NCBI RefSeq assembly: GCF_004010195.1 | Contig: NC_057757.1 | Coordinates: forward strand, 4,489,049-4,521,739 | DNA length: 32,691 nt | Direction: 5' to 3' | From: Chiloscyllium plagiosum | Lineage: Eukaryota | Shown: positions 1 to 29,018 of the stretch, one piece after another | How the letters are laid out: every line of letters begins with the position of its first letter | How positions within the stretch are numbered: the stretch's first letter is position 1 | The notes under the pieces: model-generated | Databases searched by the model: none | Seen by the model: the letters and a program-made list of their open reading frames with translations, nothing else | What the model was told of the DNA's origin: nothing | Program-made: the position numbers and the translations under genes

Positions 1-418
1 ACATGGGTCGCAAATCTCTCCTGGTGTTGTCACGTGACACAAACTGTTGTGCAATCAAAAGTGTGGGGTGCTGTTAAAGTCATCCACTATGTACTAACAC
101 CATGCATTCCATTTATTGTGATCTTGCTGTTCAATGCTTTAACGGTCAGGTACATTTTAGGGACTAACAGAGCCCGCATCAGACTCCAGAGTGATGGCTG
201 TGGAGAGTGTCCCAGTCACCCTGAGATGGAGAGTCTCAGGAAGCCCATTACGATCCTGTCGGCTATATCAGGGAACTTCATATTGTCATGGGGAATATTT
301 ATTGGAGAATGGAGAACCTTGGATATGAGTCACTGGCATCTATGCAATAACACAACACAAATTCAGAGAAGAGGTGAAATATCTGTTATCGTTTTCATTT
401 ATTACCAATACAAAATAA
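1..418 (+). pseudogene. GPR139-like GPCR pseudogene, 3' part of exon 2 (ECL2 to helix 8); 5' part lies outside the window
   Basis: Frame 1 from base 1 reads TWVANLSWCCHV..VWGAVKVIHYVLTPCIPFIVILLFNALTVRYIL..NRARIRL..PEMESLRKP..ISGNFILSW, collinear with the intact paralogue at 17400-17700. Homology shifts to frame 3 at ~300 (YWRMENLGYES vs LKRFDYLGYP) and to frame 2 at 332 (TGIYAITQHKFREEVK..TAA 416-418 vs TFIYAVTQRKFREELK). Most of TM7 is deleted. Confidence 0.85.
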
Positions 419-496
419 TTTCAAACAGGAAAAGAAATTATCGCCAGTGCATCACCAGGTCCGTGTTTTTATTTGTCTGTTGCTGAATGGTTTCTG

Positions 497-3075
497 CATA
501 GAGTCATACAGTCTTACAGCACAGAGACAGGGTCTTCGGCCCTAACTGCTCCATGCCAACCAAAATGTCTGTCCATGGTAACCGCATTTCACTGCATTTG
601 GCCCATATCCTTCTAATCCTTTCCTATCTATGTAATTGTCCGATTGCCTTTTCAGTGTTATTAATGTACCCACCTCAACCACTTCCACTGGCAGCTCATT
701 CCATATGCGTAAAAAAGGTTGTCCCTCAGGTTCCCTTTTATTCTTTCCCCTCTAACCTTAAACTGATGCCCTCTAGACTTTGATTCCCCAACCCTGGGTA
801 AGAGACTGAGTGCATTCACCTTATCCATGCCTCTCATGATCTTATACCCCTCAATATGATCCCCCTCCGTCTCCTATGCTCTAAAGAAAATGTCCTAGCT
901 TGTCCAACCTCTCCCTGATGAGCCCTGGCAACATTCTTGTAAATTTCTTCTGCACTATTTCCAGTTTAATAACATCCTTCCTGTAGCAAGATGACCAAAA
1001 CTGAACACAATGCTCCAAGTGTGGTCTCCCCGATGTCCTGTACAACTGCAACATAACTTCCCAACTTCTATACTCAGTGGCCTGACTGATGAAGGCTGAT
1101 GTGTCCTGTCTTCACTCCCTGTCAACCTGTGATTCCACTTTCAGAGAACCGTGCACCTGAACTGCAAGGTCTTTCTGTTCCTCTACACTCCTTAAGGCCC
1201 TACCATTCACCATGAAACACCTACCTTGATCTGACTTTCCAAAATGCAACACATCACTTTTATCTATATTAAACTCCACTTGCCAATTCTTGGTTCACTG
1301 CCCCAGCTGAACAAGATTCTGCTGCAATTTCCGACATCCTTCCTCACCGCCCACGATGCCACCTATTTTAATGTCATCTGCAAACTTAGTAATCACGCCT
1401 TGTACATTCTCATCCAACTCATTGATACAGATAACAAACAGCAATGAACCCACCACCGAGCCCTGGGGCACTCCACTAGTCACAGGCCTCCAGTCCAAAA
1501 ATCATCCTTCCACTGTTACTCCCTGCTTCCTACCATCAAGTCAATCCCACCGGATTCCATGCAATCTAGTCTTCCAGAGCAGCCTACCATGTGGAACCTT
1601 ATCAAAAGCCTTACTGAAATCCATTTGAACTACATCTACTGAACTGCCCTCGTCAACCTTCCTGGTCACTTCATCAAAGAATTCTAGTAAATTTGTGAGG
1701 CATGATCTCCCACTCACAAAGACATGCTAACTACTCCCTAATCAAGCGCTGTGTCTCCAAATGCATGTACATCTTATCTCTCAGAATCTTCCCAAGTAAC
1801 GTACTCACCATAGATTTTAAGCTCACTGGTCTATAGTTCCTGGGCTTCTCTTTTGTAAGTAAAGGCACAACATTCGCTACCCTTCAGTCTTCCGGGACCT
1901 CACCCATGGCTGATGATGATGATGATGCAAAAATATCAGCCAGAGCTCCTGCAATTTCTTAGCTAGCTTCTTGCAGTGTTTTTGGATATGGCTGGTCAGG
2001 ACCAGAAGATATATCCGCCTTCATACATTCTAAACATCCAACACCGCCTTTTCTGTGATATGGACTGTCCCCAGAGGCATGTCCATTAACTTCTCCAAGT
2101 TCCCAGTCTTCATGTCTTTCTCCACGGTAAACACAGAGGAGAAATATTCATTGAGGACCTCACCCATTTCCTGTGGTTCTACACATGCATGTCTACTTTG
2201 GTCCTTGAGGTGTCTTATTCCCTATTTCTTCTTTTTCCTTTAATATAGTTAAAGAATTTCTTTGGATTCACCCTAATCTTCTCAGCCAAGGCTATCTCAT
2301 TCCTCCTTTTTGCCCTCCTGATTTCCTCCTTCAGTAAACTCCTGGATCCCCTGTGTACCTCCAGCGATTCTCTTGATCCCAGCTGCATGTCCCTGAGCAA
2401 CTCTTCCTTCTTTTTCCTGGTCAAAGCCTCAATACCTCTTGTATTCCTGCCCTTTCACCCTCACAGGAACTTATAGACCTCGAACTCTAGCTATCACACT
2501 TTTAAAGGCCTCCCCCTTGCCAGAGGTCCCTTTGCCTGCAAACTACTCCAATCAAACCCTCACAAGCTCCTGTCTAATTCCATCCAAATTCGCCTTGCCC
2601 TAATTTAGAACTTGAAGCCGTGGACCAGTTTTGACCTTCTCCGTAACCATTGTAAAATTAATAGGACTATGGTCACTGGTGCCAAAGTGCTCCCCCACTG
2701 TCACCTCCGTCACCTGTCCTGCCCTGTTTCCCAAGAGTAGGTCGGATTTTGCCCCTTCCTGAACAGGATTCTTTATATCCTGCTTGAGGAAACTTTCCTG
2801 AACATACTTAACAAATTGCACACCATCTAAGCCCTTAATACTGTGGCAGTCCCAGTCGATGTTAGGAAAATTAAAAGCCCCCACTACGACAAGCCTATTG
2901 CTGCTCTCTCCAGTCTCCCTGCATATTTGTTCCTCTAATTACCATTGACTATTTGGGGCCGATAATACAACCCCAATAATGTCATCATCCCCTTCTTATA
3001 TCCTGCCTCCGCCCACAAAGTCTCACTGATGATCCCTCACTTATTCCGTCTCTAACTGCTGCTGTGATACTCCCC
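497..3075 (-). mobile_element. CR1-clade LINE, degenerate ORF2 (APE + RT) with 3' UTR
   Basis: Minus-strand peptides DWRPVTSGVPQGSVVGSLLFVICINELDE..KFADDIKIGG (RT, 1295-1498) and GAFNFPNIDW..SDH (APE, 2600-2884). CR1-type 3' end near 497-560. Many stops and frameshifts. Confidence 0.9.
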
Positions 3076-3119
3076 TTGAACACAAATGTAAATCTCGGGG
3101 AATGATGTCAAATCTCAGT

Positions 3120-3225
3120 CAATGATGCCCAACCTTTTCAAAGTCAAGGCCCACTTCAACGAGACAAATAATACCAGGGCACACCCACGGTTTTACAAAT
3201 GCGAAGCGCAGTGTTGGAGATGTGC
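3120..3225. repeat. Short interspersed repeat, copy 1 of 3 (possible hAT-type MITE)
   Basis: CCCAACCTTTTC..CAAGGCCCACTTCAACGAGACAAATAA core shared with ~5080-5180 and ~14635-14745. Confidence 0.55.
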
Positions 3226-27670: not shown

Positions 27671-28182
27671 CCAGCTTTTGGCTCTTTTTATATCAATAGA
27701 CTCTGGTTTGGTCATGGTAACAACAACGTAGAACAACAGAGGGAAATGATTGCGAGATACCACGAGTGTAATCTAATTGATTAAAGATGCTTTTTGAGGC
27801 ATTTGAATGATCTTAATCCCTCCCCCAATTTTTTTTTCCCCTTGGCCAGCACTTCACTGATATCATCGAAAATATAAAAGCGAAACTTGGGAGAGTGGAT
27901 AACAATAATTGTTTTAAAATGCTGTCAAATGACTTGAATCCTTTCTGGAGGCCACAGAATCCTGAGGGACATGGGTTTCCACAGATATTCTGTTCCAATG
28001 AATGTCAGAATCTCCCTGCGTGTTTTACAAGTCCCTAAATCTGCTGCTGACCCTTTGGAATCGAAAGGTGCATTTTTTCATCTTGTTGTTGTAATCTGTA
28101 GCTTTTGACGACTTCTTTATTGTACTGAAAAGGAAGTTATTCCAATTCCATCTCAATAAACACAATTTACTGCCTTTGTTTG

Positions 28183-28495
28183 ATTAATTCATGGCACATG
28201 GGTATTGATGGCCAGGCCAGCATTTATCGTCTGTCCCTAGTTGCCCCTTGAGAAGGTGGTGGTGAGCTGTCTTACTGAAATGCTGCAGTGTGTGTGATGT
28301 AGGGGCACACAATACCAACAGGGAGGGAATTCTAGGATTTTGACCAGCAACATTGATGCAAAAGCGACACATTTCCAAGTCAGGATGGTGAGTGGATTGG
28401 AGAGGAACTTGAAGGGAGTGAAGTTCTCATGTATCTGGTGCCCTTCTCTTTCTTGATGGAAGTGGTTATGTGTTTGGAAGGTAGTGTCTAAGGTC
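28183..28495 (-). mobile_element. LINE 3' end (CR1/L2 group) sharing its tail with SacSINE1-like SINEs
   Basis: CCAGCATTTAT..CCCTAGTTGCCCCTTGAGAAGGTGGTGGTGAGCTG; same tail as 4458-4570 and 15657-15772 on the opposite strand. Confidence 0.7.
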
Positions 28496-28918
28496 CCTCA
28501 GTGCCTGGCAAGTCAAGTGTTATTTTCCCCCCAAAAGCCCAAATAATTTTGTAGTTCCGAATGTGTTTTGTTCCAATCCAAATGCAAGCTTGTCCTCTCA
28601 CATTAAAATGCTATAAACGTTTGAATTTAATTTTGTGAAAAATGTGCCAACCATTCAATCAGTGCAGTGCCAGAAGTGAGAAATGAGTATGACAAATCAT
28701 AATCCTAATCTGTTGCAACACTTCTGTCTCTGTTGGGATTGCTTCCATGAGGAAATTGTACCTAATGGAGAATGGAATGCCGGAAGGAATATTACTGCTC
28801 CACCTGTGCTGTGATCCCACAGGAGCTTTCTCTCAGTTAGAAATGAAGGCTCACTCTGCATTCATCATCACCCAGAGTTAGTTGAAGCTTCTTGTCAAGT
28901 GTCACTGACTTTGACAAA

Positions 28919-29018
28919 ATGAGAGTGCCTTTCACAGAGTATCCTTTTGTGGAATTACCAGCCATTGTGCAGACAGTAATGATTTACTATCCGATTATTG
29001 CAGCTATTGGAGTCCCCG
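28919..29018 (+). CDS. Exon 1 of a further GPR139-like paralogue; exon 2 not in window
   Basis: MRVPFTEYPFVELPAIVQTVMIYYPIIAAIGVP-G then donor CCG|GTAGGT. Same IYYPxxAAxGVP motif and phase-1 position as 16288-16384. Confidence 0.8.

Follow-up and report, generated by a model that had tools for sequence, protein, structure and literature searches.

Tandem GPR139-related receptor genes of Chiloscyllium plagiosum belong to a large cartilaginous-fish family with a possible chemosensory role

Three receptor gene copies in the window

The stretch of Chiloscyllium plagiosum DNA analysed here (contig NC_057757.1, positions 4,489,049 to 4,521,739; 32,691 nucleotides, referred to as the window) carries three copies of one family of class A G protein-coupled receptors (GPCRs), all on the plus strand and embedded in DNA rich in long interspersed nuclear elements (LINEs). 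We call them copy A, gene B and copy C. The original prediction, made from the letters alone, described a pseudogene, an intact gene and the first exon of a third gene, and took them for a tandem cluster of GPR139-like orphan receptors, possibly of a chemosensory type. All three same-strand paralogues are present; the spacing is 17.4 kb for A and B (between corresponding exon 2 positions) and 12.6 kb for B and C (start codon to start codon). A hidden Markov model (HMM) of the family, run over the whole window, found no further copies.

Gene B (16288-17904) is an intact two-exon frame of 330 amino acids without an internal stop. Its Pfam match is 7tm_1 (E 6e-21) and it scores E 1e-129 against the family HMM. 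Exon 1 (16288..16384, 97 nt) encodes a short N-terminus and the first half of transmembrane helix 1 (TM1), and ends in phase 1 with a GT donor; the intron (16385..17008, 624 nt, GT...AG) includes a pyrimidine-rich simple repeat near 16590-16800; exon 2 (17009..17904) encodes the remainder of TM1 through helix 8 and the stop codon. The splice is inferred from homologues with the same length and N-terminus, and both the start and the length of exon 1 are the same as in the shark homologues P0001-P0055. A motif scan placed a candidate TATA-like box on the plus strand at 16192..16199, 96 nt upstream of the gene B start codon.

Copy A (1..385, plus strand) was delimited by tblastn, translations and the family HMM and represents the 3′ part of an exon 2, the 5′ part of the copy preceding the window start. 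It contains the end of the second extracellular loop (ECL2), TM5 and TM6, then a net loss near 304-331, and from 332 a TM7/helix 8 remnant in a different frame. The HMM matches it at 4-324 (E 5e-34) and 332-439 (E 1e-5), and positions 4-303 share 51 of 100 amino acids with TM5-TM6 of gene B (tblastn). The spacer between TM6 and TM7 measures 108 nt in gene B and 28 nt in copy A; since this net loss of 80 nt shifts the reading frame, copy A is a pseudogene. Non-synonymous divergence (dN) between A and B is 0.36 and synonymous divergence (dS) about 1.6, a ratio of about 0.23 in one pair of 100 codons near saturation, which suggests that copy A died after long purifying selection. A strong ECL2 difference between the two copies had been claimed; only the second half of the loop is visible in copy A, and with 8 of 21 residues identical there and 43 of 79 elsewhere a difference exists but is modest.

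Exon 1 of copy C (28919..29018, plus strand) has 100 nt, that is 33 codons and one nucleotide, with a GT donor at 29019. Both visible first exons (B and C) thus end in phase 1 before a GT donor, as expected for the common intron that had been predicted. On its own this exon scores weakly with the family HMM (E 0.3); its closest relatives are the N-termini of P0131 from a sawshark (22 of 33 amino acids, E 6e-11) and P0143 from a skate (18 of 32), members of a subfamily about 50% identical to gene B. The HMM did not find an exon 2 of copy C in the 3.7 kb from exon 1 to the window end. Judged by the HMM values, chance resemblance is excluded for copies A and B. The dS of about 1.6 between A and B and the placement of C nearest another subfamily indicate that the three are not recent duplicates of each other.

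The DNA between the receptor genes contains remnants of decayed LINEs that match endonuclease and reverse transcriptase at 2600-2938, 5264-6270 and 26257-27000. Two copies of about 860 bp (96.7% identity) lie head to tail at 10606-12322 and overlap a frame of 127 amino acids (11440-11823), which by eye we take to be a retroelement gag remnant; it has no Pfam match. Within the copy C intron, the minus strand of 30839-32691 carries frames of 315 and 124 amino acids, presumably related to the 3′ part of an L1/Tx1-type ORF2, again without a Pfam match.

A large cartilaginous-fish family and its relatives

A search with exon 2 of gene B returned 2,365 protein clusters (90% identity) at E ≤ 1e-10 among 3,297 candidates. 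Among the best 120 of these 2,365, all 118 with a species name are from sharks (51 Heptranchias, 37 Heterodontus, 12 Pristiophorus, 9 Stegostoma and 9 others), and 117 bear the automatic name "probable" or "putative GPR139". The closest to gene B among the matches listed are zebra-shark proteins with 82-84% identity. A word-free search gave 116 representatives (50% identity) at E ≤ 1e-30, reaching down to about 35% identity. Members that were looked up come from sharks, skates, a stingray and the chimaera Callorhinchus; the radiation of the family therefore began before chimaeras and elasmobranchs diverged. In the DNA run X1, 914 contigs aligned to a 1.9-kb stretch at 85% identity or more (22 at 99% or above, 115 at 95-99%, 338 at 90-95% and 439 below 90%), some of which may be 3′-flank repeats. 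The X1 species carries the locus itself: one piece of 174 nt matches it without a difference and one of 878 nt with 4.

Clustering extends to other species. Within the best 120 of the 2,365 clusters, 14 of the 37 from horn shark and 11 of the 51 from sevengill lie, in each species, on contigs of identical size, which points to arrays on single scaffolds. The horn-shark protein P0301, of the subfamily of copy C, is on a contig sized as that of the 14 B-type genes, so a mixed cluster of B-type and C-type genes is probably ancient. When species are mapped onto the tree of 115 close homologues, 15 label changes are required (minimum 5; shuffled labels 53), a pattern that we read as species-specific blooms within several older branches. 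Copies within a species can be nearly identical (up to 0.96-1.00). The gene B subfamily keeps its 330-residue frame and its N-terminus at 69-84% identity across squalomorph and galeomorph sharks. Many family matches are truncated or odd gene models. A tandem, birth-and-death, pseudogene-bearing array of a large cartilaginous-fish GPCR family, as proposed from the window, is thus supported by the sequence data.

An N-terminal tandem repeat of about 14 residues was seen in 40 of the 432 collected proteins, with 1-7 matches per protein (P0057, P0070, P0093 and P0218 from sevengill and horn shark are examples). It starts with Met and contains an N-glycosylation sequon, and so resembles a stalk of variable length with predicted glycosylation. 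Gene B and copy C lack it.

Human GPR139 is the best solved-structure match of gene B by sequence (E 7.8e-9), at about 27% identity (76 of 279 residues, counted by eye). The structural model used for the fold search was that of P0007 (82% identical to gene B, pLDDT 85); human GPR139 ranked first here too (E 5.4e-10, 20-22% identity), with opioid, CCK and chemokine receptors close behind, within a tenfold E-value. GPR139 and GPR142 are class A orphans activated by L-Trp and L-Phe, and mutagenesis has identified F3.33, H5.43, W6.48 and N7.39 as activation residues, with R6.51 modelled (PMC5430874). The corresponding residues of gene B (3.33, 5.43, 6.48, 7.39, 6.51) are Y, H, W, F and F, so that H5.43 and W6.48 are shared; none of the 115 close members of the family has N7.39 or R6.51, and of the 64 distant members 3 have N7.39 and 2 have R6.51. 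In the alignment both GPR139 and gene B lack the proline at 7.50, and gene B has lost P6.50 in addition. Human GPR139 presumably has a phase-1 intron at the TM1 site of the gene B intron. The sequence of GPR139 is highly conserved across vertebrates (PMC12208981). It is one brain receptor, in contrast to the hundreds of clustered copies and pseudogenes of the shark family. The low identity (20-27%), the loss of N7.39 and R6.51 and the multi-copy state largely rule out that gene B is a GPR139 orthologue, in line with the divergence already suspected from the window; RefSeq nevertheless files the family under this name.

Sequence searches found two groups of proteins closer to the family than GPR139. 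One is a gene also called "probable GPR139" (P0243, P0278-P0297), with one cluster per species in 20 amphibian clusters, Xenopus tropicalis and axolotl included, and in sturgeon; a word-based search with 25 matches contained no amniote or teleost. It shares about 30-33% identity with the family and the motifs in ICL1 and in ICL3/TM6 (ICL, intracellular loop), but it retains P6.50 and N7.39, is single-copy and has a pocket conserved to 98%, from which a single ligand appears likely. Basic residues occupy 6.51 and 6.55 in this gene, and N replaces D at 2.50. The other is a lineage around P0244, found in coelacanth, teleosts, amphibians, reptiles and sharks. Judged by this species range it probably corresponds to GPR210, as GPR210A/B are orphans of coelacanth and fishes related to GPR139/142 (Rinne et al., 2019; PMC6504862). 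Shark, amphibian, turtle and squamate members of this GPR210-like lineage are P0307, P0310, P0314, P0342 and P0365; some models are named as TMEM183A isoforms, which suggests TMEM183A as a neighbouring gene. The coelacanth model P0275 contains a translated insert where the family has its TM1 intron, which suggests that this intron probably arose before the family did.

An IQ-TREE tree of 37 rows, in which 18 of the 21 family homologues have a species name and from which true GPR139 and GPR142 are absent, places the shark family on one side of a branch (support 84/33) and groups it with the amphibian/sturgeon gene as sister lineages (93/86, short of the star threshold). Neither value is strong, and the amphibian/sturgeon gene is the probable sister of the family. 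The GPR210-like proteins form a clade of their own (100/100) that includes their shark orthologues, which excludes gene B and its relatives from this group; these proteins also differ in that the shark orthologue is conserved (60-66% to coelacanth) and no expansion was seen. The closest relative is probably the single conserved gene of amphibians and sturgeon and not GPR139.

Conservation and variation across the receptor

Gene B and its family have the features of class A receptors: the 7tm_1 domain, seven helices and a helix 8, N1.50, D2.50, C3.25, DR(Y/F), P5.50, W6.48 and N7.49-Y7.53, although gene B lacks P6.50 and P7.50. Positions were assigned from class A motifs, and the generic numbering and a set of 22 pocket positions were chosen from general knowledge. 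Fused or duplicated models among the best 120 matches (P0003, P0006, P0044, P0100 and P0106), P0126 and matches covering fewer than 270 residues of gene B were excluded. The distant set comprises 64 paralogues, 23 of them from named chondrichthyans (24 were looked up), and the GPR210-like control consists of 56 of the 120 matches listed. Sequences and sites are not independent, so all p-values are to be taken as guides.

Across the 64 distant paralogues D2.50, C3.25, D3.49, R3.50, W6.48, N7.49, Y7.53, ICL1 and the start of TM6 are nearly fixed. Identity is 0.32 in the outer half of the receptor and 0.58 in the inner half (0 of 10,000 permutations as low), which bears out the diversification of the ligand side that had been anticipated. 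The 22 amphibian orthologues show the opposite pattern (0.85 outer, 0.75 inner), and in the 56 GPR210-like orthologues the halves do not differ (0.61 and 0.63). Signatures of eight core pocket residues were all different in 56 distant paralogues, compared with a single signature in the 22 amphibian orthologues, and the 22 pocket positions fall in conservation rank relative to both orthologue controls (p = 4e-5 and 0.007). Within the gene B subfamily it is the extracellular loops that vary (ECL 0.49, ICL 0.75). Variation thus has two tiers: the deep pocket differs between old subfamilies, whereas in the gene B subfamily it is kept and the loops above it vary. None of the sequence-level outcomes that had been named as speaking against the original proposal, namely few copies, one-to-one orthology with GPR139 or a lack of diversification at ligand-facing sites, was observed.

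A possible chemosensory repertoire

The family has several hallmarks of a chemosensory repertoire: it is large and clustered, its genes are compact, it has lineage-specific gains and pseudogenes, and its ligand-facing positions are diverse in paralogues and conserved in orthologues. We consider it about an even chance (roughly 0.5) that it is a repertoire of chemosensory type with a role in sensory or barrier epithelia. The tandem cluster likely descends from one ancestral jawed-vertebrate relative of GPR139, of which the gene kept single in amphibians and sturgeon may be another descendant, as the 93/86 branch suggests. By sequence and structural model, each gene encodes a short-tailed class A receptor. 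The fixed inner face would likely couple all receptors to one common G protein, the reshuffled outer face would likely give each old subfamily its own ligand class, and loop changes, as in the gene B subfamily, may tune selectivity inside one such class. The ligands might be small water-soluble molecules or peptides, because the ancestry of the family lies among amino-acid and peptide receptors (PMC8514136). Expression would be sparse and located in sensory or barrier epithelia such as nose, taste organs, skin or gut.

Compact genes in clusters, with birth-and-death turnover and variation on the ligand side, are also typical of the OR, TAAR, V1R/ORA, V2R, T2R and MRGPR/FPR families. The shark family differs from them in having 7tm_1 as its only Pfam match and in its ancestry; membership in OR, TAAR, V1R, V2R or T2R is ruled out by this Pfam result, and none of these occurs among the solved-structure or Atlas neighbours listed. 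The next Atlas neighbours by features (0.96-0.97) are Srw-bearing clusters of molluscs, nemerteans and arthropods, and the Srw-type expansions of nematodes and Aplysia likewise are chemoreceptors derived from peptide-receptor-like ancestors (PMC3963977). Gene B shows no Srw match (PF10324), and within one Atlas cluster of the family only 16% carry this profile; the shark genes more likely expanded independently than as part of Srw.

RNA data gave little signal. In the single-cell run X21, 55 of 12.96 million reads matched exon 2; all were partial and less than 95% alike and hence come from paralogues. X22 yielded 0 of 8.3 million reads on exon 2, and X23, which is assumed to be RNA, 25 contigs, all less than 95% alike. 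The low signal would fit sparse expression. Ten of the paralogue reads in X21 leave the family sequence just after TM3 (window position 17290) and run into unrelated letters, possibly from a transcribed, interrupted copy.

Several observations speak against a chemosensory role. GPCR paralogues commonly vary more on the outer than on the inner face, whatever their function. In the distant set the pocket did not differ significantly from other outer TM positions (0.27 and 0.34, p = 0.076), and within the gene B subfamily of 115 it is the more conserved part (0.83 compared with 0.69). No RNA match to gene B itself reached 95% identity (0 reads in X21, 0 in X22, 0 contigs in X23). The 600 nt upstream of B and of C contain no O/E-type site and no common block, 83 of 200 shuffles scoring as high. 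Olfactory neurons of the catshark are nearly all Go/TRPC2-positive microvillous cells, which fits V2R expression (PMC10116579), and the top 50 brain-and-nose genes of this species, in the parts covered, include no GPCR (PMC10116579, PMC11979771). The catshark nose is described as a V2R organ and may not need another receptor family, which speaks against a main olfactory role; these nose studies did not address the present family.

The same sequence hallmarks would be expected of an immune or barrier-defence repertoire, with receptors of leukocytes, mast-like cells or nociceptors that recognise microbial or damage peptides in the manner of MRGPR/FPR. The loop variation of the gene B subfamily could mirror a race with pathogens, the presence of paralogue reads in X21 agrees with this reading, and cartilaginous fishes reportedly lack MAS1 and its relatives (PMC8455134), which leaves this niche open. 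The examined part of the marker tables of the bamboo-shark immune-organ atlas contains no "receptor 139" (PMC11372145). Its shark sheet lists 11 other "coupled receptor" rows and, since genes become markers in such tables only when many cells express them, sparse expression would escape notice; the result speaks weakly against widespread expression in immune cells. We regard an immune role as rather unlikely. Less probable is a largely neutral bloom, in which unequal crossing-over in repeat-rich clusters produced copies that are mostly silent or redundant, with selection on few. The many truncated or odd models, pseudogene A, the LINE-rich spacers, the near-identical copies within species and the missing RNA of gene B would agree with this, but the dN/dS of A and B, the frame and N-terminus retained by the gene B subfamily in both shark groups, and signalling residues that stay nearly invariant in distant paralogues while the outer face varies speak against it.

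About equally improbable is an array of reproductive or endocrine peptide receptors acting in gonad, sperm, clasper or oviducal gland, as an echo of the invertebrate sex-peptide/MIP receptors. GPR139 and GPR142 share their origin with the protostome receptors for MIP/sex peptide, FMRFamide, proctolin and myosuppressin (PMC8514136, PMC12208981), the nearest folds are those of peptide receptors, and some catshark V2R and OR genes are enriched in testis (PMC11979771). Yet hundreds of distinct pockets exceed the usual endocrine needs. To our knowledge, no matching large family of peptide ligands exists either. That the genes are plain shark copies of GPR139 or GPR142 sensing Trp and Phe, as the database name implies, agrees with the best structure match by sequence and fold and with H5.43 and W6.48; it is largely refuted and very improbable given the identity of 20-27%, the other peptide receptors within a tenfold E-value, N7.39 in 3 and R6.51 in 2 of 179 members, and the closer amphibian/sturgeon and GPR210-like proteins.

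The sequences are already in RefSeq under the borrowed GPR139 name. A literature search by name or lineage, covering open papers and a minority of supplements, found no paper describing the expansion. The white-shark genome study of Marra et al. in 2019 reportedly counted a few dozen "GPCR139" proteins and may be prior art. The text covered of a preprint (bioRxiv 10.1101/2022.10.17.512540) has no match for 139 or GPCR, and neither 12 of the 24 supplements of PMC8455134 nor one small supplement of PMC10529500 has a match for the family. New here are the probable single-copy sister gene kept by amphibians and sturgeon, the evidence that sets the family apart from the GPR210-like lineage, and the pattern of variation measured against orthologue controls.

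The family is a GPCR repertoire that grew out of an ancestor not expected to give rise to one. The whale-shark paper describes a paucity of GPCRs in cartilaginous fishes (PMC8455134), the known shark chemoreceptor repertoires are small (PMC11979771, PMC10116579), and these animals are described as poor in olfactory receptors (PMC10116579) despite their keen chemical sense. A family of such size with reshuffled pockets would change the GPCR count of cartilaginous fishes whatever its tissue. The question of its role is directly testable with existing RNA data, and the conserved amphibian gene, present in Xenopus tropicalis and axolotl, is a good target for deorphanisation and a tractable handle on the ancestral ligand. 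More tentatively, and with odds somewhat below even, this may be an unrecognised vertebrate chemosensory family that arose from a GPR139-related peptide-receptor gene, still single in amphibians, and has hundreds to a thousand or more members per shark genome. If so, it would be many times larger than the known olfactory receptor repertoire of sharks and overturn the idea that a few dozen receptors account for chemical sensing in sharks, rays and chimaeras.

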